Assembly: GCA_015489175.1 (NCBI GenBank)
Contig: WGAI01000072.1
Coordinates: forward strand, 2,828 to 66,827
DNA from: a candidate division WOR-3 bacterium
Lineage (GTDB): Bacteria > Hydrothermota > Hydrothermia > B15-G9
Length of the DNA stretch: 64,000 nt
Reading direction: 5' to 3'
Below, piece by piece: positions 3,524 through 52,743 of this stretch (the first letter of the stretch is position 1; every line of letters begins with the position of its first letter). Made by a program: the position numbers and the translations under genes. The notes under the pieces were generated by a model. The model saw only the letters and a program-made list of their open reading frames with translations, did no database searches and was not told the DNA's origin.

Positions 3524-5440
3524 CTACCTTCCAATTACCACCCTGTGCGCTTCCATGAGATGCCCATCGTTGAAAGCTGTCAGAAAATAGACGCCTGATC
3601 TCATTCCGCTGAGTGACATCGAGAAATGGCCGGGCTGCCTGATTTTCTTCTCTCTGACGGTGCGGCCGGCCACATCGATCAACCTGATGCAGTTAACCTC
3701 AGGGCTTTTGACCTCGAACTCAAGCATGTCCGAACCGATTTTCAGGTCGGAACCCACGATGAGAATATCCTTCATGTCGTGTTCCACATCCTCGTTGACA
3801 GCTGACCTCTGGGTTATGATTGCCCTGATGAAGTAGTTGCCATCGGTGTCGTAGCTCCACGATGCCCCTCCGTCCGAGCTGTAAGCGTTGTCCAACGGGT
3901 TCGATACATTGTCCTGCCTGAGGTATGGTGCGTGAGATGTCTCCTGAGAAACGCCAATCCAGAATGTCCCGTTCAATGTTATGCCCTGAGATGTGAGGTC
4001 GATCGTGATCCACTGGTCAGTCCCAACTGCCACAGCTGGAATCTGGAAGTCGCCGTAAGCCAGCAGACTGCCGGGTATGCCTGAATTATCGCTCCATACG
4101 AAGTAGTGCCCGGTCTGGGCGTAAGGTTCAAATCCGATCGGGGTGCCGAAGTAGGCGATTATGGACTGGAGCTGGGAGCTGCGGCTTACCGAATACCTCG
4201 AGGCTTTGATGTATGAGCCCCATTCATTTGCGCAGTAATAGTAAGGCGAGCCATTGTCGTTTGCGAGCGTGTCAATGGACGGATAGGATGCCGCTGCGTT
4301 CACCGCCGCAAGCGCATCGACAACGCCATATCCATAGTAGATATCCCGTCCGGGCGTCCCCATGTCCATTGCTGTCGAGTCCAGAATTGCCCTCACTGCA
4401 GCGCCGTTCAAAGCGGGGTTTTCGCTTATCACGAGGGCAGCCACTCCCGAAGCCATAGGTGTGGCCATGGATGTGCCGCTCATGTAACCGTAGTCGCTGT
4501 AAGGTATTGTTGAATAGATGTTTGTGCCGGGAGCCGTGAGCTCGACCTCAGGGCCGTAATTGCTGTAACCTGCCACCGATGAATCGATATCTATTGCTCC
4601 GACTGCCACGACCGTCGGATATCGCGCAGGATAGTCCACCGAGTCGGCGGCATCGTTTCCGCTCGCCGCAAATGTGATAACACCATGATTTGCAGCGTAT
4701 TGACATGCTTCATCCAGTAGATAATGGCCAGATGGCCCGCCAAGGCTCATGTTAATCACACGCGCTCCATGATCAACTGCCCATGTGATGCCGTCGGATA
4801 TATCATCGACTGTGCCAGAACCCTCTCGATCGAGCACCCTCAGGGAATACAGGCTCACCTGAGCTACACCCGCAATGCCCATGTTGTTGTCCATCTCAGC
4901 TGCGATTATCCCTGCGACATGCGTGCCGTGGTCCTCTGTCACATCGGAGGGCAGCGGGTCGTTGTCGTCGTCCACGAAATCGTATCCCTTGACCGTTCCA
5001 AAATGGCCATCCAGATCCGGATGCGTGTATTGGACACCCTGATCGACGATTGCTACTTTGACATCGGCGCTACCTGTCGTGCTGTCCCATGCCGCAGGCG
5101 TGTGAATGAAAGGTAGCCCCCATTGAAGGTTCCAGAAAGGATCGTTCGGGATGTGCGATGCGTGGTAGTATGTCGTCGGTTCAACATATCTCACTCCCTT
5201 GATGCCCATCAATCGGCTGTAAATCCCGCGATAGTCCTTCGACTTTATCCTGACCACAACATAGTGGAACGGTTTTGTCCTGACCTTTTCTATCCTCAGT
5301 TCATTGTCAAGCGATTTGATTGCGGATACCATTGAAACGGAGTCGATTTCGTGGCTATCGGCGAACCTCACTATTATCCTTGAACTATCCAAGAACGGAT
5401 TGGCTGTTGTCATAAATACGCTCAACACAACACCCATCAT
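3524..5440 (-). CDS. Subtilisin-like serine peptidase (S8 family) with a T9SS C-terminal domain
   Basis: Catalytic triad motifs present: VAIVDQGV...D, DHGTHVAGIIAA (H) and GTSMATPMASGVAAL (S). C-terminal GVYFLTAF...RVVIGR matches the CTD sorting domain. Confidence 0.85.
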   Translation of the reverse strand: MMGVVLSVFMTTANPFLDSSRIIVRFADSHEIDSVSMVSAIKSLDNELRIEKVRTKPFHYVVVRIKSKDYRGIYSRLMGIKGVRYVEPTTYYHASHIPNDPFWNLQWGLPFIHTPAAWDSTTGSADVKVAIVDQGVQYTHPDLDGHFGTVKGYDFVDDDNDPLPSDVTEDHGTHVAGIIAAEMDNNMGIAGVAQVSLYSLRVLDREGSGTVDDISDGITWAVDHGARVINMSLGGPSGHYLLDEACQYAANHGVITFAASGNDAADSVDYPARYPTVVAVGAIDIDSSVAGYSNYGPEVELTAPGTNIYSTIPYSDYGYMSGTSMATPMASGVAALVISENPALNGAAVRAILDSTAMDMGTPGRDIYYGYGVVDALAAVNAAASYPSIDTLANDNGSPYYYCANEWGSYIKASRYSVSRSSQLQSIIAYFGTPIGFEPYAQTGHYFVWSDNSGIPGSLLAYGDFQIPAVAVGTDQWITIDLTSQGITLNGTFWIGVSQETSHAPYLRQDNVSNPLDNAYSSDGGASWSYDTDGNYFIRAIITQRSAVNEDVEHDMKDILIVGSDLKIGSDMLEFEVKSPEVNCIRLIDVAGRTVREKKIRQPGHFSMSLSGMRSGVYFLTAFNDGHLMEAHRVVIGR

Positions 5441-6895: not shown

Positions 6896-8647
6896 TCAGT
6901 TCACTACGGCTTTTATGATCTCGGGATCCGTTCCGAGCGATTCCAAGAACTCTTTGCGTTCCTTTTTCATGCGTTCCACCCATTCCCTGTATTCGTCGAG
7001 GCGTCCCTGTTTCTCAAAAAGGAGTTTTGGCTGGAGTATTTCGGCAGGAACCTTCTCAAGTAGCTCACTGTTTTCAGGTGCGTTGACATCCACGATCAGG
7101 TATCCGAAATCCGGGTCCTTGATCCATTTGATCGCATCGCGCAGCATGGCCTCAAGCATAGCCGACGAGTGCCTGATTTTGACTTTCAATGCGCGGCCTG
7201 CCTTTTCGTCGAGCGCATCTCCTCCGACATAGCCCGTGTTCATCATCCACGCTACAAGATCTGGCATGTCGGAAGTCAGTTCGAGGTAGCGCTCAGCCAT
7301 CAGGCTGAATCGTCTCGGGAAGAACGGATTTGTGAACGGAGAGCGGGTCTTGCCGCGCTCCTTGCCGGCTGCCGATGTCTTTGATGTCTCGCCCAACAGG
7401 AAATAGCCGGCCGCCTGTGCAGCGGATGAGAACCTCACGATGCCCGGTGTAGCGGCATCATGTCCCTCGTCGCGATTTAATATGCCGATATACTTGAGTG
7501 GCGGTATGTTGTGGAGGTCGGCGGCGTCCTCGATTATCGACATCGGGATGATTGAGCGGCCGTTCTGAGTCCATACCACGAAATCCCATCCGTCTTTGGG
7601 GACGAGATAGCGGTCAACCACATCCTCGGCCTTCACCTCGCCTCTGATGTATTTCTCTACATTCTCCGGCGGCGCGCCAGTGGCTATGAGGATGTCTTTC
7701 CAGCGCTCAACTTCTTCAGGAGTAAGGACATCCTTGGAGAAGTCGTAAGTGCCATCCTCGTTCATGTAAACGTTTTCGACCCAAGCATCGGGATGGACGG
7801 TCCCTTTGTAGATGACCGGCTCAGACTCCGGTTTAAGCCCATAAGTCTTTGCAAAACAGCCGTTTTCTGTGACATTTATCTGTTTGTCGGGCCAGAGGGA
7901 GATCATGTCATCCTGAATTGGCTGTGTCAGTTCCCCCTGCTTCGAGAATGTGGTCGTTGTCTTGCCAGTGCCGGACAGGCCCATTATAGCCATGGTCACG
8001 ACCTTATCGCCTATCTTGACGGCCTTTGCGCCTGCGTGGAACACGAGCCCGCCGAGTTGATACACATAATCGTTCAACAATCTGAGTGCGCCTTTCTTGC
8101 TCTCGCCGAAGTAGTCCGAACCCATCACATAGTTTATGTAGTTATCGAGGTCAACGACCACCGCCATTTTGCCGGGCATATCCTCCACGATAAATCCCGA
8201 TGTATATACGACGGTCAATTTGGGCTGAAACGGTTTTGCAAGCTGCTCAGGTGTCTCCACTTCTTCGCGCGGGAATGCCAGAACCTGCTGCATCCCTGCT
8301 ATATTCGCCGACTCCGGTGTGAAAAGCCACAGGACAGGCACCGCCTTTTCGCCAAGCCCAAGGTAACCCTGAATTTCTATCAGGAATTCGCTGTTTTCAA
8401 TGTATCTTCTTTGCCTCTCGATAAGCTCTTTTGCCTTCTCTGCGTCGATGATGTTATGAGAATACTTATCTTTATCGCTCGGCGGTGCAATCACATAGGT
8501 GTATTTCGCCATCCTTGCTTTAAATCGGGTTATACGGTCAAGATTGCCGTATGCTGATTTGAGTATTGGATGGGAATATTTGATTGCAAGCTCCCTTAAC
8601 TCCTTCTGTGACGGATTTACTATCCTTTTTACTTTGTAGTTAAGCAT
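6896..8647 (-). CDS. pckA: Phosphoenolpyruvate carboxykinase (ATP-dependent family)
   Basis: Kinase-1a motif GLSGTGKTT, the DD..W / NGCFAKTYGL block (compare E. coli LIGDDEHGW...GGCYAK) and FTNPFFP. Length 583 aa. The N-terminal ~200 aa diverges from the enterobacterial PckA. Confidence 0.8.
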   Translation of the reverse strand: MLNYKVKRIVNPSQKELRELAIKYSHPILKSAYGNLDRITRFKARMAKYTYVIAPPSDKDKYSHNIIDAEKAKELIERQRRYIENSEFLIEIQGYLGLGEKAVPVLWLFTPESANIAGMQQVLAFPREEVETPEQLAKPFQPKLTVVYTSGFIVEDMPGKMAVVVDLDNYINYVMGSDYFGESKKGALRLLNDYVYQLGGLVFHAGAKAVKIGDKVVTMAIMGLSGTGKTTTTFSKQGELTQPIQDDMISLWPDKQINVTENGCFAKTYGLKPESEPVIYKGTVHPDAWVENVYMNEDGTYDFSKDVLTPEEVERWKDILIATGAPPENVEKYIRGEVKAEDVVDRYLVPKDGWDFVVWTQNGRSIIPMSIIEDAADLHNIPPLKYIGILNRDEGHDAATPGIVRFSSAAQAAGYFLLGETSKTSAAGKERGKTRSPFTNPFFPRRFSLMAERYLELTSDMPDLVAWMMNTGYVGGDALDEKAGRALKVKIRHSSAMLEAMLRDAIKWIKDPDFGYLIVDVNAPENSELLEKVPAEILQPKLLFEKQGRLDEYREWVERMKKERKEFLESLGTDPEIIKAVVN

Positions 8648-8739
8648 GACAGCCTCCTATTGGCCTGAAATTTTATCTCAAATAGCTCCAGATAACCACA
8701 TTTTTAAACAGGTTTAACCTTATTCGATTTTCTCGTCTA

Positions 8740-9927
8740 TCACTCGATGACCTCTGTTACGATACCGACGCCGATTGTTTTGCCATCCTCACGGACAGAA
8801 AACCTGAGCCCTCTCTCGATCGCGACGGGATAATCAAGTTCAATTTCAAGGGTAACATGTTCGCCGGGGATAACCATCTCGTGGGTATCTGGCAGTTTGA
8901 TGGTGCCCGTAAATTCTCTTGTCCTGAAGTAGAACCCTGGACGATAGCCGTTGAAGAACGGCGTGTTACGGCCGCCCTCTTCTTTTTTCAAGACATAGAC
9001 CTGAGCTCGGAACTTTTTGTGAGGGCTGATGTTGCCGGGCTTTGCGACAACCATGCCGCGCTCGACATCATCCTTCTCAATTCCACGGAGAAATATACCC
9101 ACATTGTAATTAGGAAACGCCTCATCGAGGATTTTGCGGAACATCTGGATGGATGTCACAACTGTCCTGATAGGTTTGTCCCTAAATCCAACCACCTCAA
9201 CTTCTTCCCCAAGAGCAAGTCTGTCGCGTTCAACATGACCGGTCACCGCTGTGCCACGACCGGCGATTGAGACGACATCTTCAATTGCCATGAGGAATGG
9301 TTTGTCAAGTTCGCGGACAGGAGCAGGAATGTAATTATCGAGAGCGTCTAAAAGCTCCTGAATAGGTTTATACCACTTGCAATTGGGGTTATCGCCGCAC
9401 TCTTCGATCGCTTTAAGAGCGGAACCTTTGATCACAGGAACCTCATCCCCCGGGAATCCATACTCGTTAAGCAGGTCGCGAACCTCCATCTCGACCAACT
9501 CGACGAGCTCAGGATCATCGACCATATCGATCTTGTTGATGAACACGATGATGTAAGGCACATTAATCTGACGGGCGAGGAACACATGCTCATGAGTTTG
9601 AGGCATAACGGACTCCGTGGCGTCAATTACAAGGATAGCGCCGTCCATCTGTGCGGCACCGCTGATCATGCCGACAATGTAATCCGTGTTTTCTTGATAG
9701 TCTATGTGACCGTATCTACGCCCACGTGTTTCATACTCGATCTGCATTATTGTAACCAAACCACGAGCGTCTATCCTGCTCATCCTTTTAATTTCACTAT
9801 AAGGAACATAATTGGTCGTTCCATGAAGGGACAGATATCTGGTTATGGCAGAAGCGAGAGTGGTTTTTCCATGTCCAATATGCCCTATCGTCCCTACAAG
9901 CAGATAAGGTTTTATTCTTACTGTCAC
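8740..9927 (-). CDS. EF-Tu-like GTPase paralog with a degenerate switch II (DCPGH replaced by DYQEN)
   Basis: Roughly 50% identity to EF-Tu along the whole length: GHIGHGKTT (G1), NKID (G4), SAL (G5), [22 protein letters not shown] and a GGR.TPFF.GYRP.FYFRT C-terminal domain. The universally conserved HVDCPGHADY is [10 protein letters not shown] here. The likely start is GTG at 9927 with GGAGGTGA upstream; the ORF-track extension to 9996 has no RBS. Confidence 0.85.
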
Positions 9928-10303
9928 GGCAATCACCTCCAGACTTTTGAACCGTTTTATCCAACACAGTACATTGCAAATTCCTTTCCAGCGCACAAGG
10001 TAATGCGATTAGTTTTTATTTAACTTTAAGCGATCGCCGCGTGTCAAGCTTGTGATGGGCAGAGCGTGGCATGTGGAAGTGGGGATTAGAAAAGCTCTTA
10101 GTGGATGAATTCACAGGAAGTAGGTTTATTAGTCCAGCCTCACAATTTGCACAACAGGTCGATGCATAAACTGGTTCTGGGATCAAAACAAACTCCCCTT
10201 GAAAATCGGTATTCCGTTTCTAAGAAATTTTGCAGGTAACAATTGAGCTCTATAAACTTTTTAAACTTAATTTTGAACTCATGTTAAAACGAGGAGGTTG
10301 GTC

Positions 10304-10927
10304 ATGTATAGACGGCTCAAAATGTTAGGTGTTTATTCATATCTGGTGTTGCTTTTATTTGTTGCCATTTTTGGAGCGGGATGTAGCTCCTACATACTGC
10401 AACAAAGTCCGGAAACGCTTCCCCAAGGTGAAACTTCCCTGCGGTTTGGTGTGACAGGGATACGCGATAAGGATACCTCTGATTACAATGTATATCCACA
10501 TGTTTCTTACAGGAGAGGACTCTCGCCAAAAGTTGATATGGGCATAGAAGGAGTCATATTGCCAACTGGATGTGGCACATACATCGATTTTTCATCCGAT
10601 ATCAAAGTCAGGCTCTTCAGATACAGGAAGTTTAACATCAGCATGGACCATCAGGTTTCTCTTGTGAGGTATAAGGATAAAACCAACTTGTTTTTTGCAC
10701 CGAGCATCCTGTTTGGCTGGCGAAGGTTTTTCGGTGCGGTGAAATTTATCTCATTTTACGGGGGATTCGTGCCAGCGTATTATGTGGGAACAGACCTCAG
10801 GGTAGGAAAAGTAGGATTTGTCTTTGACATTGGTATGATAGGAAAAAGGTCCATAAAGGAAAATGGATACATTTTTACATTCTCCAAAACGATGTTACCG
10901 GAATTCGGCGTCTATATTAACTTCTGA
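10304..10927 (+). CDS. Putative outer-membrane lipoprotein or small beta-barrel protein (hypothetical)
   Basis: GAGGAGG SD site. Lipobox-like signal ...LLLFVAIFGAGC. Alternating amphipathic beta-strand-like composition with a C-terminal Phe. No family recognised. Confidence 0.5.
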   Translation: MYRRLKMLGVYSYLVLLLFVAIFGAGCSSYILQQSPETLPQGETSLRFGVTGIRDKDTSDYNVYPHVSYRRGLSPKVDMGIEGVILPTGCGTYIDFSSDIKVRLFRYRKFNISMDHQVSLVRYKDKTNLFFAPSILFGWRRFFGAVKFISFYGGFVPAYYVGTDLRVGKVGFVFDIGMIGKRSIKENGYIFTFSKTMLPEFGVYINF

Positions 10928-12989: not shown

Positions 12990-13619
12990 ATGAGCTTGGT
13001 CGATTATTTTAACAAGGGTGGCTCAATGATGTGGCTCCTGGCCCTGGTAGCACTTTGGGCTCTTGAGATCATTGTCGAGCGCATAATTACTCTGTGGATA
13101 GTGCACAGGAAGAATCCCTTAACCGTTTTCGAGGAGTTCAGAAACATATTTGAGTCCGACGGAATGGAAGCGGCTCGCGAATATCTTGCCAAAGATAAGT
13201 CTCCAATGGCAAAGATATTGCTGGTTGGACTTGAGAAGATCGATAGAGGCCGCACGGTGGTTGAGGAGAGCATGACGATGAAAGCTTCCAATGTGCTTGC
13301 ATTCCTTGATCGCGGCATGATTTACCTCAACGCATCTGCAACCCTCGCCCCGATCCTTGGATTCCTTGGAACGGTTACGGGAATGATCAAGGCGTTCAAC
13401 GCCATAGCCCTTGCGGGTGAGGTTGAGCCGACCCTTGTGGCCGCCGGTATATCCGAAGCTCTGATCACGACAGCGACAGGTCTTCTTATAGCCGCACCGG
13501 TGGCTATCTTCTACGCAGCCTTCGCTTCCACAATTAACGGTTATGCAAGGAAGGCCGAAGAAGCATCCAATGCTTTCATTGAATACCTCCTTGAAAAGGG
13601 CTTGCTTAAAGCTGAATAA
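12990..13619 (+). CDS. exbB: MotA/TolQ/ExbB proton-channel family protein
   Basis: Three transmembrane segments with a conserved C-terminal LGFLGTVTGMI..F...A block. First gene of an exbB-exbD-exbD-tonB cluster. Confidence 0.85.
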   Translation: MSLVDYFNKGGSMMWLLALVALWALEIIVERIITLWIVHRKNPLTVFEEFRNIFESDGMEAAREYLAKDKSPMAKILLVGLEKIDRGRTVVEESMTMKASNVLAFLDRGMIYLNASATLAPILGFLGTVTGMIKAFNAIALAGEVEPTLVAAGISEALITTATGLLIAAPVAIFYAAFASTINGYARKAEEASNAFIEYLLEKGLLKAE

Positions 13620-13637
13620 GCCCGGAGGTGATTTACT

Positions 13638-14066
13638 GTGGCATTAGTTGATAAAAAAATTAAACAGGATGAGGTCGAGATACCGACCGCCTCCATGTCC
13701 GATATCGCTTTCTTGCTCATAATTTTCTTCATGACTACTTCTGTGTTCTCGCGCGATAAAGGCCTTAAACTTGTGCTTCCGGAAAAAGGACAGGAAGTGA
13801 AGGTCGCATCGGAAAACCTCATTAAGATAGCCATTAACCCTCAGGGTGAGGTGTTCTTCGGTGATGAGCCTGTCACTGTCAGCCAGATACCTGAAAAAGT
13901 TAAAGCCAAACTTGCGGAGAATCCCAAGTATGTTGTTCTGATAAGAACCAATGAGCTTGCACCATACGAGAAGATGATCGAGGTGTTAGATGCGGTAAAA
14001 TCGGTGCCTGAAGCCAAGCGGATATCGCTCAGTGTGATTAAGACAGAACAGGCTCAAGGAGGGTAG
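13638..14066 (+). CDS. exbD: ExbD/TolR biopolymer transport protein
   Basis: GTG start with GGAGGTG SD. N-terminal IPTASMSDIAFLLIIFFM TM helix typical of ExbD. Confidence 0.8.
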   Translation: MALVDKKIKQDEVEIPTASMSDIAFLLIIFFMTTSVFSRDKGLKLVLPEKGQEVKVASENLIKIAINPQGEVFFGDEPVTVSQIPEKVKAKLAENPKYVVLIRTNELAPYEKMIEVLDAVKSVPEAKRISLSVIKTEQAQGG

Positions 14067-14070
14067 GCAG

Positions 14071-14478
14071 ATGAAGATTAAAGGTAAAAGGGAACAAAAG
14101 GCACAGATACCAACCGCTTCCATGTCCGATATAGCTTTCTTGCTGATAATCTTCTTCATGCTGACAACTGTGTTCCGCAAAGAGACAGGCCTTAAAGTTA
14201 TACTCCCGAAGGCGAAGATGACCGAGCGTGTCCTCAAAAGCCGCGATGTAGCTAATATCTACATCGATAAAGACGGTCGGATCTCGGTTGACGATAAGCT
14301 TGTGGCGCCAGAGCAGGTCAAGATGGCGTTCAAGGTTAAACTTGCGGAGAATCCAGCTGTGCTCGCTCAGCTCAAAGCGGATAGGCGTGTGAAGTATGGG
14401 ACTGTCAACGATGTGCTGGATGCGCTGCGTGACGCTCAGGCTTTCAGAATCATATTCGCAACGGAATACAAGCGATGA
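14071..14478 (+). CDS. exbD: ExbD/TolR biopolymer transport protein (second copy)
   Basis: Same ExbD N-terminal TM signature (IPTASMSDIAFLLIIFFM) as the adjacent copy, with GGAGGG SD. Confidence 0.8.
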   Translation: MKIKGKREQKAQIPTASMSDIAFLLIIFFMLTTVFRKETGLKVILPKAKMTERVLKSRDVANIYIDKDGRISVDDKLVAPEQVKMAFKVKLAENPAVLAQLKADRRVKYGTVNDVLDALRDAQAFRIIFATEYKR

Positions 14479-14504
14479 GGATAAACCCTTAAGGGGGTGA
14501 GAAA

Positions 14505-15155
14505 ATGGCAGAAGAAAAGGAAAAAGATCAGGAGTTGGAAGTTTACGAGCCGGAACAGGATTACCCGCTTCACCTGAATATCGCCCTCACTATCACGCTT
14601 GCAATGTTTATCATCCTGCTGACTTCGATCAAAGTCGAGGTTAAGCCTTACAAGCCGAAGAAAGAGATTGCTGTGATGACGGAGGAGGTTTCCACAGAGG
14701 TGGAGCAGATGCAGGAAGAGGTGAACATACCTAAGCCCAAGCTTCCAGTTCAGGTTGAAGAGGCTGAGGAAGGCGAGGAAACGGCTGACCTTAACGAGCT
14801 TGAAGGCCTTGAGACATCCGATTTTAATGAGTTGACGGCTCCGCCACCGCCCAAAACCGATACGGCGATCGATTTCTATGCCGTTGAGATAAAACCTAAA
14901 GTAATTAAGAGGATTGAACCTCAATATCCTGATGTTGCCCGCAGGGCGGGCCTTGAGGGCGATGTATTTGTGCTGCTTATTGTCGATGAGAAGGGCAATG
15001 TGGCGAGTGCTCAGGTTGTTAAAAGCACCAATCCTATATTCAATGAGGCTGCTCTTAAGGCAGTTAAGCAGTGGAAATTTTCGCCCGGCTATCAGCGCGA
15101 TAAACCCGTTAAGGTGCGCTTGATGCAGCCTATTCACTTCAGGCTTACTAAATAA
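14505..15155 (+). CDS. tonB: Energy transducer TonB (C-terminal TonB domain)
   Basis: N-terminal TM helix, Glu/Pro-rich linker and a C-terminal TonB_C block VEIKPKVIKRIEPQYPDVARRAGLEGDVFVLLIVDEKGNV...KFSPG. Confidence 0.75.
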   Translation: MAEEKEKDQELEVYEPEQDYPLHLNIALTITLAMFIILLTSIKVEVKPYKPKKEIAVMTEEVSTEVEQMQEEVNIPKPKLPVQVEEAEEGEETADLNELEGLETSDFNELTAPPPPKTDTAIDFYAVEIKPKVIKRIEPQYPDVARRAGLEGDVFVLLIVDEKGNVASAQVVKSTNPIFNEAALKAVKQWKFSPGYQRDKPVKVRLMQPIHFRLTK

Positions 15156-15205
15156 TTTGTTCGGGCATTGTGAATTTGGTAAAAGCAAATAAGGAGGTTT
15201 TGAGG

Positions 15206-18200
15206 ATGTGGATCAAAAAGAGGGCATGGGTGATAGGCGTTGCCATGATCTTCGGATTGGCAACGTCTCTCATCGCAGGTACTACCGGTAAAATCGTGGG
15301 TAGGGTGGTTGATGCCGATACCAAAGAAGGACTACCGGGTGCCAATGTCGTAATAGAAGGCACCCACATGGGCACAGCCACCGACATGGATGGTTACTAT
15401 GTGATCCTGAATGTGCCGCCAGGAACCTACACCATCAAAGCTTCGATGCTTGGCTACCAGACCATGGTGGTTAAGAATGTGGTTGTCGAGGCAGACCGCA
15501 CGACAGAGGTTAACTTCAAACTGAAAGCCACCGTCATAAAAGAGAAGGAGATCGTTGTCGTCGCTAAGGCACCTACTATCAAAAAAGACCTGACAGCGAG
15601 TGTAAATATCGTTAAAGGTGAGGATGTGCAGACATTACCTGTGTCTGATGTGGCTCAGGTTGTGTCTCAGCAGGCCGGTGTTATCGCTCGTGGCGGACTC
15701 CATATCCGTGGCGGTCGTGCTGGTGAGGCTGTTTATGTCGTCGATGGTGTCGAGGTTCGTGACCCTTATGGAGGTGCTACTCAGGCGTCAATACCACTCC
15801 TCGCTATGGAAGAGACAGAGATCAGCAAAGGCGGTTTCGATGTCGATCAAGGAACAGCTGCATCGGGTGCAATCAATGTTATTACCAAAGAAGGTGGTCC
15901 CAGATATGAAGCTGCGGTTTATTTCAACACAGGCGATTTCTCCTTCCTTGGCGATAAGTTTCAGGCCCTTATGGATGCAAACACCGGTGACCCTTATTAC
16001 CACCTGCTTAAAGATATCGATGCAGGCAAACTTGATGGTGTTGTGAAAGATTCCGCTTCACTCCTTGATTACCTGAATGACCCCGTTGGAAAACATAAAT
16101 CTCTACCAAAGCATTTTGAGTTTGCCGTTGGAGGCCCTATCCTTCCGACAAACAGAAAAGGCGCTAAGTTCTTTATTTCAGGTTATTCCGATAGAAATAA
16201 AGGAAGATTCCCGGTCTCCGATAATCCTAAATGGAACAATTGGGAGGAGAGGTATCAGTGGAAGTTTAGTCTCCCTGCATCAAACTTCAAATTCTTTACC
16301 AGTGGATTTCTCACTCAAACTTACAGCAAAGGTTATTCAGCTGGATGGAGACTTGCTCTTGACCACCTCGCCGATTTCTCACAGAGGCTTTCTCAGTTTA
16401 TCTTTGGAGTGAATTATCTGTTTGGAACCAAGGCATATCTCGAGGTTAGAGGTGGCTATTTCGATAACGATTTCCTTGATAATGTAGTTGAGGATGTGGA
16501 TAAGGACGGCATCGATGATTTCGCTGACAGAGATCAAGACGGTTACATAGAGGTTGACGACACATACTTTGTTGATGCTAACGGGGATACTGTTGATATA
16601 GCTGCCCTTTATGGTGGTATCCTTGACAGAGGTAACGGCTGGGTGGAGCTGCCCTTCCATTGGTGGGATAACGAGATAGTCAGCCTTTATCCTACCATCG
16701 GCACAGGCCCATCCTGGTGGGCTTCCGATACATCTCAGTTCCCCAACACCTATGGATGGGGTCATAAGACCAGAAAGGACCTTATAGTTGTGCTTCTTCC
16801 GGATGGCAGGCTTGTGTATGGTGAGCAGGGCAACGGAGACACAGTTGTTACCCTGAATGGAGAAAAGCTTGCCTATCAGTCACTGCTTCTCAAGATAGGT
16901 AACCAATACATAGGTGATGCACATACATGGCCGAGAAGCCAGTGGTATTATGGGCATAGCCGCACATATTCCTTCACGACAAGGTTTACCGGCCAGATCA
17001 CAAAGGCTCATGAGATTCTCGCTGGCTTCGAGTACAGAAAGTTTGATATTAAGCGCTATGGTGCAGACTACGCTTCAGGTGGTAACTTCTATTTCACATT
17101 TGTTAACCTCCCGTTTGTTGAGACGAAAGGCGTAAAGTGGTTCGAGAAATATCCGACCAGACCTTATACATTCGCTGCTTACCTCAGGGATAAGGTTGAA
17201 ATCGAGGGAATGGTCGCTAAGGTCGGTGTGAGATACGACTACCTCAACTCCGATGGATGGGTGCCGGGCGACACAACTGATCCGTTCGAGTTCGATCCGG
17301 TTACCAACTGGGGCTTTATCAAGAACCCTGTTAAGGCAAAACCGAAATGGCATCTCAGTCCTCGTATAGGTATTTCACATCCTATTTCGGAAAGGGATGT
17401 TTTGCACTTCACATACGGCCATTACTATCAGCTTCCACCGCTCGCTTACATGATTCGTGACTATGTGTTCTCAGGAGCGTTCCCAATTCTCGGTAACCCT
17501 GACCTGAGCCCTGAGAAGCAGATCGCTTACGAGGTCGGCGTCAAGCACGCCTTCACCAATACTGTGGTTCTCGGTGTCACAGCTTATTACAAGGACATTA
17601 AGGGATGGTCAAGGATTAAGATGATCCATCTGCCCAACGGAAGGAACTATTCGACCTATGTGAACGAGGACTATGCTGATGTCAGGGGGCTTGAATTTGA
17701 CTTCAACAAGCGTCCCGGTGGGACGATGTTCCCGTATCTCGGAATTGGCGTTTCCTACACTTATCAGATAGCTAAAGGTAGTTTCTCCAATCCGGGTGAT
17801 GCTTACAACTGGGCATGGCGTGGATATCCGATGCCCGATCAGGAGCATCCGCTCAACTGGGATCAGAGGCATACCCTTATGCTGAACCTCTCTCTCATTT
17901 CACCTAAAGGCAAACCGCTTGGGCCGATTGACGACTGGGGTATCACGATCCAGCATTCCTATGGAAGCGGTTATCCTTACACGCCTCCGATCAGGACGCC
18001 GCGTGAGGCTATGGAGCTCATTAACTCCAAACGTCTTCCGCCTACGCATAACACGAACCTCAGGATATACAAGAACTTTGCCCTAGGCCCTGTGAGGATC
18101 AGGACATTCTTTGATGTCTATAACCTCTTTAATGTGAGGAATCTTACCGGGTTCTCCAGCGTTGAGTGGTATGAGCAGTTCGGTGATCCCGAAGGCGAAG

Positions 18201-18274
18201 AGAAAACACCCACAGTCTGGTCTGCTCGCAGGACTGTCCACTTTGGTATTGAACTCAGGTGGAATGAGGGATAG
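15206..18274 (+). CDS. SusC/RagA-like TonB-dependent receptor with an N-terminal carboxypeptidase-regulatory-like domain
   Basis: AAGGAGG SD before ATG 15206. CarbopepD_reg-like segment GKIVGRVVDADTKEGLPGANVVIEG...DGYYVI. Plug domain followed by a long beta-barrel ending ...GIELRWNEG; about 1020 aa. Lies immediately downstream of tonB. Confidence 0.8.
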   Translation: MWIKKRAWVIGVAMIFGLATSLIAGTTGKIVGRVVDADTKEGLPGANVVIEGTHMGTATDMDGYYVILNVPPGTYTIKASMLGYQTMVVKNVVVEADRTTEVNFKLKATVIKEKEIVVVAKAPTIKKDLTASVNIVKGEDVQTLPVSDVAQVVSQQAGVIARGGLHIRGGRAGEAVYVVDGVEVRDPYGGATQASIPLLAMEETEISKGGFDVDQGTAASGAINVITKEGGPRYEAAVYFNTGDFSFLGDKFQALMDANTGDPYYHLLKDIDAGKLDGVVKDSASLLDYLNDPVGKHKSLPKHFEFAVGGPILPTNRKGAKFFISGYSDRNKGRFPVSDNPKWNNWEERYQWKFSLPASNFKFFTSGFLTQTYSKGYSAGWRLALDHLADFSQRLSQFIFGVNYLFGTKAYLEVRGGYFDNDFLDNVVEDVDKDGIDDFADRDQDGYIEVDDTYFVDANGDTVDIAALYGGILDRGNGWVELPFHWWDNEIVSLYPTIGTGPSWWASDTSQFPNTYGWGHKTRKDLIVVLLPDGRLVYGEQGNGDTVVTLNGEKLAYQSLLLKIGNQYIGDAHTWPRSQWYYGHSRTYSFTTRFTGQITKAHEILAGFEYRKFDIKRYGADYASGGNFYFTFVNLPFVETKGVKWFEKYPTRPYTFAAYLRDKVEIEGMVAKVGVRYDYLNSDGWVPGDTTDPFEFDPVTNWGFIKNPVKAKPKWHLSPRIGISHPISERDVLHFTYGHYYQLPPLAYMIRDYVFSGAFPILGNPDLSPEKQIAYEVGVKHAFTNTVVLGVTAYYKDIKGWSRIKMIHLPNGRNYSTYVNEDYADVRGLEFDFNKRPGGTMFPYLGIGVSYTYQIAKGSFSNPGDAYNWAWRGYPMPDQEHPLNWDQRHTLMLNLSLISPKGKPLGPIDDWGITIQHSYGSGYPYTPPIRTPREAMELINSKRLPPTHNTNLRIYKNFALGPVRIRTFFDVYNLFNVRNLTGFSSVEWYEQFGDPEGEEKTPTVWSARRTVHFGIELRWNEG

Positions 18275-48376: not shown

Positions 48377-49426
48377 TCAGAATTTGCGTGATATGTATGG
48401 CAATATCCTGCTTTCTATCAAGGCCTTGATGCCATTCGCCACGAGTTTGACAAAGGGGTAGCCTCTGCCAACAGGGTCAGGGATGTCATCCCCCGACAGC
48501 AAAGCGGCTTTGTGTGCGGCATTGAGCTGCTCCAGCTTTTCAAGATGGCGCCTTTCCATGACATAGATCATGTCGGAATTCTCCAGCAGCTGAGGCGTAA
48601 TCCGTTTTGACCTCCTGTCGCCTGCCGTGATCCCAAGCTCGTTGAGCACCCTTACGACCTCCGAAGGCACAGGCGCGCCGTTAACCGCCGATGTGCCAGC
48701 TGAATCAACATTAACCTTGCCTCTAAGATGTTGGGGCAACAGATGTTGTAACACGGCAGCTGCTATCTGACTGCGGTATATGTTGCCGGTGCAAACAAAA
48801 AGGACATTGAGATCGAGCTGAGTCGAGAGCTTAACCTCGCGATTGATTAGGTTTTCTATCTGAAAGATGGAAATGGGGCCTTTTCTGAGAATGAGGGGCT
48901 CAGAACCACTCATATCAAGCACAGTTGAAGGCGGAGCACCACCGGATGTGCCCATCACAATGAAATCCACGGCATGATTTAGCTGGTCGATCACCTCTTT
49001 CGATGTTCGCGCTGGCGGCATTCCGGAGATATTCGCACTCGTGGATGCAAGTGGAACACGGAGGGCTTTGAGCAGCATCATGACAAGTTCATCATCTGGT
49101 ATCCTGATCCCGATCGTCCCTTTATCGGTCACAAGAAGTTTGGGAGCCTCCGGTTTCGCTTTCAGAACCAGTGTCAGCGGACCCGGCCAGAATTCCTCAC
49201 CGAGAGCGTAAGCTTCTTCCGTGAATTCTGCAAATTTAGCCGCCTCATCGATAGAACTTGCAAACAAGACGAGAGGCTTCTTCAACGGCCTTTTCTTGAT
49301 ATGGTAAATCTTACGGATTGCGTTTTCGTCAAGAGCATTGCCGATGAGCCCATACACGGTGTCCGTTGGGATTGCTACAACACCTCCATTGAGTATCGTG
49401 TCGATAGCTTTTCTGAGTGATTCCAT
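48377..49426 (-). CDS. Fusion of threonylcarbamoyl-AMP synthase (TsaC/YrdC domain) and low-molecular-weight protein tyrosine/arginine phosphatase
   Basis: N-terminal YrdC/Sua5 block GGVVAIPTDTVYGLIGNA...KKRPLKKPLVLF. C-terminal LMW-PTP with P-loop LFVCTGNIYRSQIAAAV (CX5R) and a DSAGT/DP motif. Confidence 0.75.
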   Translation of the reverse strand: MESLRKAIDTILNGGVVAIPTDTVYGLIGNALDENAIRKIYHIKKRPLKKPLVLFASSIDEAAKFAEFTEEAYALGEEFWPGPLTLVLKAKPEAPKLLVTDKGTIGIRIPDDELVMMLLKALRVPLASTSANISGMPPARTSKEVIDQLNHAVDFIVMGTSGGAPPSTVLDMSGSEPLILRKGPISIFQIENLINREVKLSTQLDLNVLFVCTGNIYRSQIAAAVLQHLLPQHLRGKVNVDSAGTSAVNGAPVPSEVVRVLNELGITAGDRRSKRITPQLLENSDMIYVMERRHLEKLEQLNAAHKAALLSGDDIPDPVGRGYPFVKLVANGIKALIESRILPYISRKF

Positions 49427-49439
49427 ATCTCCTCTATTG

Positions 49440-50105
49440 TCAATATTTTACCATAGCCCCTATGTAAAGCGGTGGATACGGCTGAATGGGAACACCGAAC
49501 TCCACCAGCAATTTAACCGGTATGTGATTTATGTAAACATTGGTAAGCTCCACTCCTCCAAATGCCTCAAGGAAGAGGGTAAATCTTGTCAAATCATCAT
49601 ATTTTAGTTTTCTGGCATCATCAAAAATGATGCCGATCCTGCGATAATCCGGCATCCTCATAAACGAGAACCCGAAATAGGTGGTGCTGCTCTGAACAAC
49701 CGATGTCGAGAAAATGAGGTCGCTACGCAATGTCATTCCGAGCGCAAACGGCTGGAACCCGAGGCCAAGCATGAGCGCACCGTTAAATGTCCTCAAATTG
49801 AGGAATTGCAGCTTGGTGTAAACGCCGATCCCCTCGCCGAAATTGGCGCGAAATCCGGCGTCGATGTTATCCGACACGCCGTATGTGTATGTATATCCTA
49901 AAGTTGGGATTATGTGGGCGCCTCTATTCTTGACAACTGAGCTGTCGAGATACTGCCGATCAAAATAGACAGGGAAGTTGAAATACCAGCCATAACTTGT
50001 ATTCTGGTAACCGACCGTCTTGGCCGTTTGAAATGTCCCCATAAAACAACCTGAGGAAACGATTACGATTATTGAAGATATAATCAAAAGTCTGACCACT
50101 TTCAT
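49440..50105 (-). CDS. Putative outer-membrane beta-barrel lipoprotein (hypothetical)
   Basis: Signal/lipobox IVIVSSGC. Alternating beta-strand pattern with a C-terminal ...GAMVKY. Located directly downstream of the tRNA cluster. Confidence 0.45.
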   Translation of the reverse strand: MKVVRLLIISSIIVIVSSGCFMGTFQTAKTVGYQNTSYGWYFNFPVYFDRQYLDSSVVKNRGAHIIPTLGYTYTYGVSDNIDAGFRANFGEGIGVYTKLQFLNLRTFNGALMLGLGFQPFALGMTLRSDLIFSTSVVQSSTTYFGFSFMRMPDYRRIGIIFDDARKLKYDDLTRFTLFLEAFGGVELTNVYINHIPVKLLVEFGVPIQPYPPLYIGAMVKY

Positions 50106-50141: not shown

Positions 50142-50217
50142 GTGGAGCCCACGCCCGGATTCGAACCGGGGACCTCTTCCTTACCAAGGAAGTGCTCTGC
50201 CTCCTGAGCTACGTGGG
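50142..50217 (-). tRNA. tRNA-Thr (anticodon GGT)
   Basis: Cloverleaf GCCCACG/CGTGGGC acceptor stem, anticodon loop TTGGTAA, T-loop GGTTCGAATCC, CCA encoded; 76 nt. Confidence 0.9.
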
Positions 50218-50231
50218 CATAGGAAGGGGAA

Positions 50232-50305
50232 AAGCGGGAGACGGGATTCGAACCCGCGACACCCAGCTTGGAAGGCTGGAACTCTACCAGGCTGAGTTAC
50301 TCCCG
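50232..50305 (-). tRNA. tRNA-Gly (anticodon TCC)
   Basis: GCGGGAG/CTCCCGC acceptor stem, anticodon loop CTTCCAA, T-loop GGTTCGAATCC; 74 nt, CCA not encoded. Confidence 0.9.
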
Positions 50306-50314
50306 CCTGTTTAA

Positions 50315-50396
50315 ATGGAGGGGGGAGGATTCGAACCCCCGAAGGCTGAGCCACCGGGTTTACAGCCCGGCCCCTTTGGCCGCTTGGGTACCCCTC
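50315..50396 (-). tRNA. tRNA-Tyr (anticodon GTA)
   Basis: GGAGGGG acceptor stem, anticodon loop CTGTAAA, long variable arm, T-loop GGTTCGAATCC, CCA encoded. Confidence 0.9.
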
Positions 50397-50407
50397 CATT
50401 TTTGGTC

Positions 50408-50480
50408 AAGCTGGCGGAGGGACTCGAACCCCCGACCTGGTGATTACAAATCACCTGCTCTTCCAGCTGAGCTACGCCAG
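50408..50480 (-). tRNA. tRNA-Thr (anticodon TGT)
   Basis: GCTGGCG/CGCCAGC acceptor stem, anticodon loop TTTGTAA, T-loop GGTTCGAGTCC; 73 nt. Confidence 0.9.
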
Positions 50481-50679
50481 CACATATTGTCAAAGAACAT
50501 TGTCGGGCTAATAATGTAAGGTAGAGCCCCAACGGTGTCAACTGGAAAATGCCGCCAAATTGGTGAAAACCATACGGTTAAACGGCTCGAAATCGGTCAT
50601 ACTCTGACTGCATGATGGTTCACACCCAACATCGCCACATAAGTGTCGATTGAGCTAAATCCACGCCTCTATGAAACTT

Positions 50680-52743
50680 CTATTCGACCACTCTGTGCGG
50701 ATGTTTCACAATTCTGCGACCGATGATAAATCTCTTCCTCAACCTCTCGTTGTAGTGAGTTTCCTCGGGATCGAACGAGTTTATCGCAACACGCCCCCGC
50801 TCAAGGCTTGCGTGTATGAACTCCATGTTTCCGAGGTAAAGCCCTACATGCCTTGGGAAGAAAACGAGATCGCCGGGTCTAAGTTTCTCGATCGCTTCAA
50901 TCGGCTCGCCGACATTTATCTGATGCTTCGTATCGCGCGGCAACTCAATGCCAAACCTGCGATACATTGCCTGCACAAAACCTGAACAATCAAATCCGAA
51001 CGGAGTTGTCCCGCCCCAGAGATAAGGGACTCCGATGAACCTCAGGGAGAAATTCAGCATTTCCTTGAGGTTGAAGCGAATTTCGTCCTTCCCAAGCAGA
51101 TGTTTACTCTTCACAAACGCCAGATCGCCGCCCGGCAAACGGATGGCCGAGAATTCGCCCACCTCATGGTCAACTATAACACGGGAATTTAGCGGCAGTT
51201 TGCCTATGGGCTCTGACGATTCCGATGGGCCGTCCCTGAGCATGGCGAAATCGTCCGCAACGATGTGAGTCCATTCACGAGGCGCATCTATGTAACGGAT
51301 ATGAGCTGTCTGAACCCATCCCGCATAGCCTTCCTGCGATGTGCGGATAAACGCCCACTCCCCCCTTACCTCGATTACTTTCATCTCGAAACCGTAGATT
51401 ATTTGACTGAACCGCTCGGAGCGGAATGTCGGCAATGCCCGAATATCGGTAACGCCGACCCTGATGGTCGCAAGTTTAGTCTTTTTCTCCTCGTCAGATG
51501 TGACTATCGGTGCGAAAAGTCGCTCTTTGGCGACAAGATCAAAAAATGTCTCCCTGTCCCTCGTGGTAACCCACTTGTCGCCTTTAACAACCGCCTCAGG
51601 TGCCCTTGCACGGCCATTGTAATTGCATGCCATCACGGAGACATAGGCTCCGACATTGGTGAATGATAAAAGTTCGCCCTGTTCAGGCATGGGTATGGGA
51701 TAATTTTTTGCAAGATAATCGCTTGGCTCACAAATCGGCCCAACAATATCGACTTCGACCGGCTCATCATGTTTTTCCTCAACAGGGATTGCCGTATGGA
51801 CAGCTCCGTAAAGCTTCGGCCTTATCAAATCGTTCATTGCAGCATCTACGATCACATACCTCACGCCGCCGGAAAGCTTCCTGTATAGCACTTTGGTGAC
51901 CAGAATCCCGGATGAAGCAACAACAGCACGCCCAGGCTCGATTATCAGCTTTTTGCCGAGCGATTTCACTACCGGCGATATGGCTTTTCCATACTCGGAC
52001 AGGGGCACGAAGTCGGTCTCCTGCTCAGATGTGTATGGAATGCCAAACCCTCCACCGATGTCGATGTATTCGATCTCAGAGAACTCGGTTATCAACGGCC
52101 GAATTTTCTCTATTGCGTCAAGATACGGTTCAGGCGAACGAATCTGCGAGCCGATATGAACGTGTATCCCAACGGGTTGAACAAGTTCCTCGTTTTGAGC
52201 CAGCGTGTAAATCTCGTAGGCTGCATCTGGTGAAACACCAAACTTGGTGCCCCTTTTGCCAGTGGCTATCTGCTCATCGGTGCCAGGCTCTATCTCAGGG
52301 TTCACACGAACAGCTATCCTGACAGGCTTATTGAGCCTTTTAGCTACCTCCACCACCTTGAGGTATTCCTCACCGGACTCTATGTTCAAGAGCAGGATGT
52401 TTTTGTTGATGGCCTCCTCGATCTCGGCTTCCGTCTTCCCGACGCCAGCAAAAACGATCTTTTCAGGCGGGAAACCAGCGAGTATAGCCTTCTTGAGCTC
52501 GCCTCCCGACACAACATCAGCTCCACACCCAAGATGCGTCAACAGATACAGGATGTTGAGGTTGGCATTTGCTTTCAGAGAGTATGCGATAAGTGTGTCT
52601 TCAGGGAACCCAGAGCGCAGTTCGCGTATGCGCCGTTCGATTTCGTCAAGGCTGTAGATATAAAGAGGAGTGCCAAGCTCCTCCGCCACATCCCTCACCG
52701 CTACATCTTCAATATGAAGCTGCCCATTTTTGTAGGAGAGCAT
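50680..52743 (-). CDS. lysA: Fusion of diaminopimelate decarboxylase (LysA) with two SH3b domains and an NlpC/P60 (C40) peptidase domain
   Basis: N-terminal ~410 aa is a PLP fold-III decarboxylase: LGTPLYIYS, SLKANANL, HVHIGSQI, EPGRAVVA, CEPSDYL. Two SH3b-like segments follow. The C-terminus has the NlpC/P60 core GVPYLWGGTTPFGFDCSGFVQAMY...GDLVFF...HVGLYLG. Single uninterrupted 687-aa ORF. Confidence 0.75.
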   Translation of the reverse strand: MLSYKNGQLHIEDVAVRDVAEELGTPLYIYSLDEIERRIRELRSGFPEDTLIAYSLKANANLNILYLLTHLGCGADVVSGGELKKAILAGFPPEKIVFAGVGKTEAEIEEAINKNILLLNIESGEEYLKVVEVAKRLNKPVRIAVRVNPEIEPGTDEQIATGKRGTKFGVSPDAAYEIYTLAQNEELVQPVGIHVHIGSQIRSPEPYLDAIEKIRPLITEFSEIEYIDIGGGFGIPYTSEQETDFVPLSEYGKAISPVVKSLGKKLIIEPGRAVVASSGILVTKVLYRKLSGGVRYVIVDAAMNDLIRPKLYGAVHTAIPVEEKHDEPVEVDIVGPICEPSDYLAKNYPIPMPEQGELLSFTNVGAYVSVMACNYNGRARAPEAVVKGDKWVTTRDRETFFDLVAKERLFAPIVTSDEEKKTKLATIRVGVTDIRALPTFRSERFSQIIYGFEMKVIEVRGEWAFIRTSQEGYAGWVQTAHIRYIDAPREWTHIVADDFAMLRDGPSESSEPIGKLPLNSRVIVDHEVGEFSAIRLPGGDLAFVKSKHLLGKDEIRFNLKEMLNFSLRFIGVPYLWGGTTPFGFDCSGFVQAMYRRFGIELPRDTKHQINVGEPIEAIEKLRPGDLVFFPRHVGLYLGNMEFIHASLERGRVAINSFDPEETHYNERLRKRFIIGRRIVKHPHRVVE

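Follow-up and report, generated by a model that had tools for sequence, protein, structure and literature searches.

A probable EF-Tu-derived pseudo-GTPase, a selectively maintained gene with a gene-conversion mosaic structure, in a narrow clade of candidate division WOR-3 bacteria

Introduction

EF-Tu is among the most conserved proteins. The subject of this work is a divergent EF-Tu paralog encoded at 8740–9927, on the reverse strand, of a 64,000-nucleotide (nt) stretch of a candidate division WOR-3 bacterium (assembly GCA_015489175.1, contig WGAI01000072.1, positions 2,828 to 66,827), referred to below as the window; positions are those of the window, and residue numbers are those of E. coli EF-Tu, verified against PDB 1d8t_A. 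That the gene is a selectively maintained, gene-conversion-mosaic copy of EF-Tu, predicted to be catalytically dead and probably tRNA-blind, is a well-supported conclusion.

Bacterial tuf duplicates are normally near-identical (PMC1780047); among bacterial EF-Tu-like proteins only actEF-Tu forms a clearly separate subfamily, and the Streptomyces duplicates are described as condition-specific translation factors resistant to EF-Tu-targeting antibiotics (Atkinson 2015, PMC4342817). Like actEF-Tu/Streptomyces EF-Tu3 (tuf3), the paralog is a second tuf that escaped homogenisation, diverged, and is dispensable beside the canonical gene; unlike them, it no longer has the catalytic and tRNA-binding residues, and only its ends escaped conversion. 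EF-Tu3/actEF-Tu is taken here to keep the GTPase motifs. The archaeal aSelBL (MM1309) is an EF1/SelB-family paralog of unassigned role with disrupted GTPase motifs, under selection and probably without nucleotide switching, and the present paralog is similar in these respects; aSelBL is, however, ancient, widespread, SelB-derived and has kept its aminoacyl-tRNA surface (MM1309 protects Cys-tRNA), whereas the paralog is young, bacterial, EF-Tu-derived and altered at its tRNA surface. Yeast Ski7, a paralog of the Hbs1/eRF3-type relatives of EF1A, lost GTPase function and became a binding adaptor; it is eukaryotic and bears an added N-terminal exosome/Ski-binding region, whereas no added domain or partner is evident for the paralog.

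Compared with canonical EF-Tu (tufA/tufB), the paralog has the same three domains, length and Shine-Dalgarno sequence; it keeps the G4 and G5 motifs, most of domain 2 and helices C and D and, as tufA and tufB do with each other, still undergoes gene conversion with the resident tuf. It differs in being without His84, Asp21, Gly83, Pro82, Cys81 and the switch-I Thr (deleted or shifted), and also without Lys89/Asn90, His66, Gln329 and Gly379; in lying outside ribosomal and tRNA operons; and in evolving about 8 times faster at non-synonymous sites. It thus resembles aSelBL and Ski7 in principle and is a member of none of the described groups, lacking several features that define functional EF-Tu despite passing the cut-off of the family's profile hidden Markov model. 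In literature searches, the coverage of which was incomplete, no bacterial EF-Tu paralog described as GTPase-dead was found; a selected EF-Tu copy without catalytic and many tRNA-contact residues would be a bacterial counterpart of Ski7 and aSelBL.

Results and Discussion

The gene, its orthologues and the co-resident tuf

8740–9927, reverse strand: EF-Tu paralog coding sequence, 395 amino acids, GTG start; G domain, domain 2 and domain 3 (open reading frame (ORF) list, Pfam, NCBIfam, orthologues).
9934–9940, reverse strand: Shine-Dalgarno GGAGGTG, read from the sequence; the 10-nt GGAGGTGATT is common to canonical tuf and marks the 5' limit of the duplicated segment.
10018–10047, reverse strand: putative promoter-like element TTGACA-N18-TTAAAT, from sequence and alignment; kept in 4/4 orthologous loci.

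Translation was taken from the GTG at 9927, six bases downstream of the Shine-Dalgarno sequence; database gene calls for the window ORF are longer (418 amino acids, from 9996), and the orthologues are called at 395 amino acids. The Pfam domains GTP_EFTU, GTP_EFTU_D2 and GTP_EFTU_D3 together span the full length and G4 and G5 are intact, in agreement with the end-to-end EF-Tu alignment read in the initial annotation. The EF-Tu equivalog model TIGR00485 (NCBIfam) gave a marginal pass, 536.5 bits (cut-off 522.4); the SelB family TIGR00475 failed, 125 bits (cut-off 242). The best-matching solved structures are all EF-Tu; the nearest canonical EF-Tus, those of the paralog's own lineage, are 74–75% identical. 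The promoter-like element was not called in the consensus scan, its −10 hexamer being without A at position 2; promoter and terminator site counts in that scan were under the shuffled expectation. Codon adaptation: 0.69 (paralog), 0.76–0.79 (canonical tuf); since codon bias is weak in this genome, the score says little on expression.

Five paralog sequences were found: the window ORF, recurring identically, and four orthologues (88–90% amino-acid identity, 393–395 amino acids) from GCA_054004895.1, GCA_054007355.1, GCA_054005935.1 and one ENA contig. The window ORF is base-for-base identical in an ENA scaffold and in the NCBI contig JALUEG010000048 of a metagenome-assembled genome (MAG). All orthologues have DYQEN in place of DCPGH in switch II, the P-loop Gly, the switch-I deletion and an N-terminus shorter by four residues; the Glu and Asn codons of DYQEN vary synonymously among them (GAA/GAG, AAC/AAT). 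Since five orthologues from independent assemblies share DYQEN and its codons vary synonymously, the motif is neither a sequencing or assembly artefact nor chance. That an artefact of assembly, sequencing or binning accounts for the gene is effectively refuted: all sources are metagenome assemblies, and a short (50-nt) canonical stretch in one orthologue (L091) could be chimeric, but the ORF is identical in independent assemblies, the four orthologues (88–90%) share all the changes, synteny is the same in the three fetched loci, and orthologue divergence matches that of the flanking genes.

The initial annotation had taken the gene for a paralog rather than the only tuf, and a genome-mate with DCPGH was found in two paralog-bearing MAGs. 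In GCA_027052935.1 a paralog ORF identical to that of the window lies on JALUEG010000048 (21 mismatches in 11.7 kb overall), and a canonical DCPGH tuf (P0008) lies in rpsL-rpsG-fusA-tuf-rpsJ on JALUEG010000051; in GCA_054005935.1 the canonical tuf (P0005), in the same gene order, is on JBPNIB010000146 and the paralog (P0123) on JBPNIB010000110. The gene is an extra copy, a true paralog beside a normal tuf. Four of the five paralogs come from MAGs whose canonical tuf and phosphoenolpyruvate carboxykinase (PEPCK) genes are very much alike; the fifth is on the ENA metagenome contig.

The nearest database matches are named candidate division WOR-3 or Candidatus Hydrothermota. On scanning GTDB species representatives with the paralog, none was present among the 80 loci listed (canonical tufs, ≤63% identity), and two JGI metagenome pattern scans for the paralog motifs gave zero matches. 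A protein search with the N-terminal 114 amino acids returned short canonical fragments (≤58% identity) and missed the full-length paralogs themselves, so that it is uninformative on more distant members. As found so far, the paralog is confined to one narrow clade.

Catalytic, switch and tRNA-contact residues

The reference for invariance was an alignment of 194 canonical EF-Tus (116 WOR-3/Hydrothermota-like, 78 from other phyla), in which 182 columns are ≥98% invariant; 32 of these 182 are replaced in all five paralogs. The nucleotide-binding motifs are:

9688–9702, reverse strand: G3/switch II, DYQEN for DCPGH (D80 kept; C81Y, P82Q, G83E, H84N), fixed in 5/5 orthologues.
9862–9885, reverse strand: P-loop, GHIGHGKT for GHVDHGKT (E. 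coli D21 to G), the pattern GxxxxGK[ST] being retained.
9742–9768, reverse strand: end of switch I, ARGLVTIMQ against ARGVTIQLAH, His66 to Gln; net one-residue deletion, in a region of low model confidence.
9526–9537, reverse strand: G4, NKID (guanine specificity), kept (sequence, residue mapping).
9415–9423, reverse strand: G5, SAL, kept (sequence, residue mapping).

The Cys, Pro, Gly and His of DCPGH are each present in 194/194 canonical EF-Tus, and DCPGH in 118/118 other top database matches; A85T adjoins H84N in the paralog. At P-loop position 21, Gly in 5/5 paralogs stands against Asp in 194/194 canonical proteins. The DYQEN substitution and the altered switch I reported in the initial annotation were both read again at these positions, and the former was found conserved wherever the paralog occurs (5/5). 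By HMMER the switch-I deletion falls on the Mg2+-binding Thr (E. coli T61, T. aquaticus Thr62); MAFFT sets V or N against this Thr, and a Thr sits one position on. The Thr would thus be either deleted or shifted in register.

In EF-Tu, His84Ala abolishes the ribosomal acceleration of GTP hydrolysis and Asp21Ala lowers the ribosome-stimulated GTPase about 1000-fold, Asp21 being the second catalytic residue (PMC5084732); the P-loop Asp is a monovalent-cation ligand of translational GTPases (PMC4342817); the main-chain NH of the DxxG glycine contacts the γ-phosphate and the switch-I Thr binds Mg2+, and the contacts to nucleotide or tRNA include T. aquaticus Thr62, Gly84, Lys90, His67, Phe229, Val237, Leu289 and Glu271 (PMC4329189). 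Because His84, Asp21 and the DxxG glycine are all replaced and the switch-I Thr is deleted or shifted, we strongly infer from the sequence that ribosome-activated GTPase, the loss of which was expected in the initial annotation, and normal GTP/GDP switching are gone. N135, K136, D138, SAL and D80 are retained, K24 and T25 each in 4/5 orthologues; the sequence suggests that the guanine base and the α- and β-phosphates could still be bound, and Glu at the DxxG glycine would, we infer, argue against a normal GTP state. In the single orthologues with K24R or T25I, nucleotide or Mg2+ binding may be no longer needed; alternatively, these are MAG consensus errors.

The AlphaFold2 (AF2) model has the EF-Tu/G-domain fold (mean predicted local distance difference test score, pLDDT, 83; switch I and switch II, about 52). 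In Foldseek it was closer to GTP-form EF-Tu (template-modelling score 0.81–0.85) than to the GDP form (0.58–0.64), from which no conformation is deduced because the switches are of low confidence and the input alignment was mostly canonical.

A working alternative elongation factor, either antibiotic-resistant in the manner of Streptomyces EF-Tu3 or with changed catalysis, is very improbable. The paralog does pass the EF-Tu equivalog cut-off, and it has L120F, Q329G and A375S at positions that we take to be sites of kirromycin resistance. A375T is such a site in EF-Tu (PMC5485169); kirromycin resistance is, however, recessive (PMC5485169), so that resistance of a minor copy would be of no help as long as the major copy is sensitive. 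Both catalytic residues, the DxxG glycine and tRNA contacts are gone, and a canonical tuf is present.

Replacements at the tRNA-binding surface are of two kinds, those in the switch II helix and the pockets and those in domain 3:

9670–9675, reverse strand: switch II helix, K89V and N90G; Lys89 corresponds to T. aquaticus Lys90, a contact of the tRNA 5'-phosphate (PMC4329189).
8779–8937, reverse strand: stretch of domain 3 with the fixed substitutions Q329G, T335R, D336E, V337F, G379D and R381K at otherwise invariant positions.

The aminoacyl pocket has H66Q/E and F218V; the A76 pocket has V226A, L277F and E259Q (the last in 4/5 orthologues); K282E is found in 5/5, R262L and R279S each in 3/5. 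Asn90 presumably acts at the tRNA 5'-phosphate together with Lys89, and the substituted positions of domain 3 are assumed to belong to the T-stem face or to the domain 1–3 interface. The contacts E215, D216, T228, N273 and R288 are kept. As residues of the 5'-phosphate site, the aminoacyl pocket and the A76 pocket are replaced in all or most orthologues, canonical binding and delivery of aminoacyl-tRNA are unlikely, and the tRNA binding expected in the initial annotation is not upheld.

The same residues bear on a second possibility, that of a specialised non-hydrolysing carrier or guardian of one aminoacyl-tRNA or another RNA, comparable to aSelBL/MM1309 or to nematode mitochondrial EF-Tu2. 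It is doubtful, though not without precedent: MM1309 protects Cys-tRNA while locked in a single conformation, and aSelBL combines a degraded G domain with conserved tRNA and ribosome surfaces. Domains 2 and 3 of the paralog are intact, E215, D216, T228 and N273 (aminoacyl pocket) and R288 remain, and the domain-3 changes, at what are presumably T-stem positions, could be a re-specification. Positive charges and key contacts are nevertheless lost (K89V and K282E in 5/5; R262L and R279S in 3/5), N90G, H66Q/E, F218V, E259Q (4/5), V226A and L277F are changed too, and the surroundings contain no unusual tRNA or structured RNA; aSelBL kept its tRNA-binding surface and the paralog did not.

Selection on the gene

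Ratios of non-synonymous to synonymous substitution rates (dN/dS) were Nei-Gojobori estimates on codon alignments. Whole gene within the paralog clade: dN/dS 0.23–0.27, P(neutral) about 2e-7 to 3e-11; window against the L002 orthologue: non-synonymous differences (Nd) 43, synonymous differences (Sd) 47, P(neutral) = 8e-10; canonical tufs among themselves: 0.02–0.03. The paralog is relaxed relative to tuf but clearly not neutral. For flanking genes the values were 0.018 (PEPCK), 0.057 (S8 peptidase) and 0.13–0.19 (207-amino-acid hypothetical protein). The synonymous divergence (dS) of the paralog is 0.20, and up to about 0.24 among the four lineages with DNA; that of flanking genes in the same genomes is 0.24–0.29, a match that fits vertical inheritance. 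The ORF is intact in all five lineages, without stop or frameshift, and the only indels are two in-frame deletions common to the paralogs; the Shine-Dalgarno sequence, the GTG start and the TTGACA-N18-TTAAAT element are kept upstream. Between paralog and canonical tuf, for the whole gene as for the N-terminus, dN/dS was about 0.2 and not above 1; no positive selection is claimed.

As the middle of the gene is homogenised by conversion (next section), the informative tests are those on the unconverted ends. Here dN/dS within the clade was 0.27–0.35 (P about 1e-4 to 2e-3), so that the paralog-specific sequence is itself constrained; for the N-terminal 110 codons alone, one pairwise neutrality test was not significant (P = 0.11).

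These values also bear on the possibility of a non-functional duplicate heading to loss, its ends, seldom reached by conversion, drifting while conversion from the good copy keeps the middle healthy-looking. The dN/dS about 8 times that of canonical tuf, the replacements K24R and T25I in the P-loops of single orthologues, the P = 0.11 for the N-terminal codons, the very narrow distribution, and the ready loss of unconverted tuf duplicates (Atkinson 2015, PMC4342817) would all fit such decay. It is nonetheless considered unlikely, in view of the constraint on the unconverted ends, the five lineages without stop or frameshift at a dS of up to about 0.24, the retention of DYQEN through synonymous change, and the conservation of the Shine-Dalgarno sequence, start codon and promoter-like element; the dN/dS of the paralog is, moreover, close to that of an ordinary neighbour gene (0.13–0.19).

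Mosaic structure and exchange with the resident tuf

Nucleotide identity of the paralog to canonical tuf is 50–72% over the first about 270 nt, 85–95% over much of the middle and 65–78% at the 3' end. The profile of synonymous differences was limited to codons with identical amino acid and taken against the in-clade canonical tuf; fraction of differences: codons 1–100, 0.46–0.48; 101–330, 0.19–0.30; 331–400, 0.41–0.46 (heterogeneity along the gene, P = 0.0005–0.017). Canonical tufs compared with one another gave the opposite trend, the N-terminus being most conserved. The N-terminus of the paralog is equidistant (0.46–0.52) from all canonical genes, including the distant c_L089, while its middle is 0.19–0.34 from in-clade canonical genes and 0.47–0.54 from c_L089.

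One tract was found in a single orthologue, L091: at alignment nt 785–834 it has the canonical state at 7/8 consecutive informative sites, against 9/171 overall, and at nt 781–840 its identity is 97% to the tuf allele of its own MAG and 78–80% to the two remaining close paralogs. A chimeric assembly could produce such a tract, yet would need both genes in one population.

In Salmonella, conversion tracts between tufA and tufB abort at the gene ends and the middle is converted most often (PMC5485169). The simplest reading of the profile is accordingly an older duplication in which the middle was repeatedly overwritten from the resident tuf by gene conversion, and the diverged N-terminal ~100 and C-terminal ~70 codons would have been separated for long. 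The gene would be an unusually clean natural case of a paralog escaping concerted evolution from the ends inward, as the Salmonella model predicts.

Proposed nature and mode of action

The paralog is probably a lineage-restricted pseudo-GTPase derived from EF-Tu and kept by selection: the G-domain fold is kept (AF2), the catalytic residues are gone (H84N, D21G, G83E) and selection is purifying. Several points weigh against this reading. The paralog is constrained about 8-fold less than canonical tuf; its clade is very narrow, and the gene may be young and transient; the co-occurrence of paralog and tuf depends on MAG binning. The P-loop carries K24R in orthologue P0121 and T25I in orthologue L091 (L091 947–2134, codon 26 of the alignment), which points towards a nucleotide-independent function or ongoing decay. 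Codons 121–150 have 0/25 synonymous differences from a canonical tuf, and recent gene conversion may by itself have kept helices C and D conserved, so that their conservation is not evidence of surface use.

On the pseudo-GTPase reading, a copy of the str-operon tuf (ORF and Shine-Dalgarno sequence) would have landed between a lipoprotein-like gene and the promoter of pckA and would have acquired, or landed beside, its own promoter-like element. The N- and C-terminal parts would have diverged for long while the centre was overwritten repeatedly from the resident canonical tuf; the diverged parts would have lost residues of the ribosome-activated switch and of the tRNA carrier (His84, Asp21, the DxxG glycine), whereas NKxD, SAL, Asp80, the P-loop Lys and Thr (4/5 each), helices C and D and the three-domain fold were kept. 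The product would be a conformationally locked EF-Tu look-alike acting by binding through its retained surfaces, of which the helix C/D face, the EF-Ts and L7/L12 site on canonical EF-Tu, would serve as the binding face.

Within the pseudo-GTPase reading, a binder independent of nucleotide state, e.g. a competitor for EF-Ts or L7/L12, is the favoured candidate mode, though a low probability is given to it. EF-Tu mutants made in the laboratory with impaired nucleotide binding act as dominant negatives by sequestering EF-Ts. If the paralog behaved likewise, EF-Ts would be held in a complex that GTP/Mg2+ cannot resolve, and the active EF-Tu pool would be smaller. Such trapping is plausible because release of EF-Ts needs re-accommodation of Mg2+ in the GTP conformation (PMC5084732), which is probably unattainable for the paralog. 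A more specific proposal, for which the chances are rated slim, is a built-in translation brake, a mimic of GDP-like or nucleotide-free EF-Tu that, being unable to reach the Mg2+/GTP state, would trap EF-Ts or occupy the L7/L12 stalk in a dead-end complex and so adjust the pool of active EF-Tu; selection would then shield the dead N- and C-terminal parts from repair by tuf conversion. The paralog as a brake would be the natural counterpart of the laboratory dominant-negative mutants, and sequestration of EF-Ts or of the stalk would represent a new kind of endogenous translation regulator; the restriction to a narrow clade of uncultured bacteria limits the present importance of the paralog.

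Origin and genomic setting

6896–8647, reverse strand: pckA, ATP-dependent phosphoenolpyruvate carboxykinase, the immediate downstream neighbour; context, outside the system.
8648–8739, reverse strand: spacer between the paralog and pckA; 92/95 aligned columns invariant in four loci, the columns including the stop codon of the paralog.

Similarity between the paralog locus and the canonical locus extends from the common GGAGGTGATT to the stop codon; what was copied is a gene-sized segment, probably of the str-operon tuf (ORF and Shine-Dalgarno sequence). The order 207-amino-acid lipoprotein-like gene (divergent), paralog, pckA was the same in 4/4 loci from independent assemblies, and an S8 peptidase lies beyond pckA wherever the contig extends that far. 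The ~44 nt immediately preceding the start codon of pckA (GCTATTTGAGATAAAATTTCAGGCCAATAGGAGGCT) are near-identical in the lineage with 94%-identical PEPCK (L096 4960–5000), where synonymous sites of pckA are saturated; this element has the appearance of a pckA promoter or leader under strong constraint. Upstream of pckA in the lineages with 94%- and 80%-identical PEPCK there are other genes and no EF-Tu-like gene. The pckA leader or promoter therefore predates the paralog, and the adjacency is recent. In the consensus scan no terminator-like site was found between the paralog and pckA, so that read-through is possible. A functional link between paralog and pckA was considered and rejected, since pckA has other neighbours in related lineages and its leader is older than the insertion; that the paralog adjoins pckA is probably incidental.

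The initial annotation had described the gene as displaced from any tuf context and had remarked on a tRNA cluster without tuf. The first observation is correct as to position, the gene adjoining pckA outside the str operon, but a meaning of the neighbourhood is not supported, the sister lineages having no EF-Tu-like gene there. The second is likewise correct as to fact: the cluster Thr(TGT)-Tyr-Gly-Thr(GGT) lies at 50143–50481, reverse strand, with no tuf after it. In E. coli a tRNA Thr-Tyr-Gly-Thr cluster precedes tufB; in the present lineage tuf belongs to the str operon, and its absence behind the cluster is therefore uninformative. The cluster is followed, at 48377–50105 (reverse strand), by a gene for a 221-amino-acid protein without Pfam match and then by a fusion of Sua5/TsaC with a low-molecular-weight phosphatase. 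For an origin of the paralog from a tuf formerly behind the tRNA-Thr cluster no evidence was obtained; the duplicated segment shares the Shine-Dalgarno sequence of the str-operon tuf. Rfam matches in the window were only the four tRNAs, with no riboswitch or leader family near the paralog, and PADLOC defence models matched neither the paralog nor the genes directly beside it.

Divergent neighbour (10298–10927, forward strand): 207–209 amino acids, signal peptide/lipobox-like N-terminus (…FGAGC), assigned to no family of Pfam or PADLOC; its synteny holds across all paralog-bearing loci, and dN/dS is 0.13–0.19.

S8 peptidase (3524–5440, reverse strand): PADLOC "subtilase" match, 2e-30; weaker matches to IetS models.

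Contig end: the NCBI MAG contig (L098 13850–21722) runs past the end of the ENA scaffold, beyond the left end of the window, and contains genes for Por_Secre_tail proteins and a Transposase_mut gene; assemblies of this population therefore diverge from one another close to a mobile element that lies ~17 kb away from the paralog.

Decarboxylase fusion (50680–52743, reverse strand): 687 amino acids, comprising an Orn/DAP/Arg decarboxylase, two SH3 domains and, at the C-terminus, an NlpC/P60 peptidase, which makes an unusual fusion of a pyridoxal-phosphate (PLP) decarboxylase with a cell-wall hydrolase.

TonB system (12990–18274, forward strand): an ExbB-ExbD-ExbD-TonB cluster, then a TonB-dependent receptor with a carboxypeptidase-regulatory-like domain; upstream of the cluster, genes for a MerR-family regulator and an undecaprenyl-diphosphatase.

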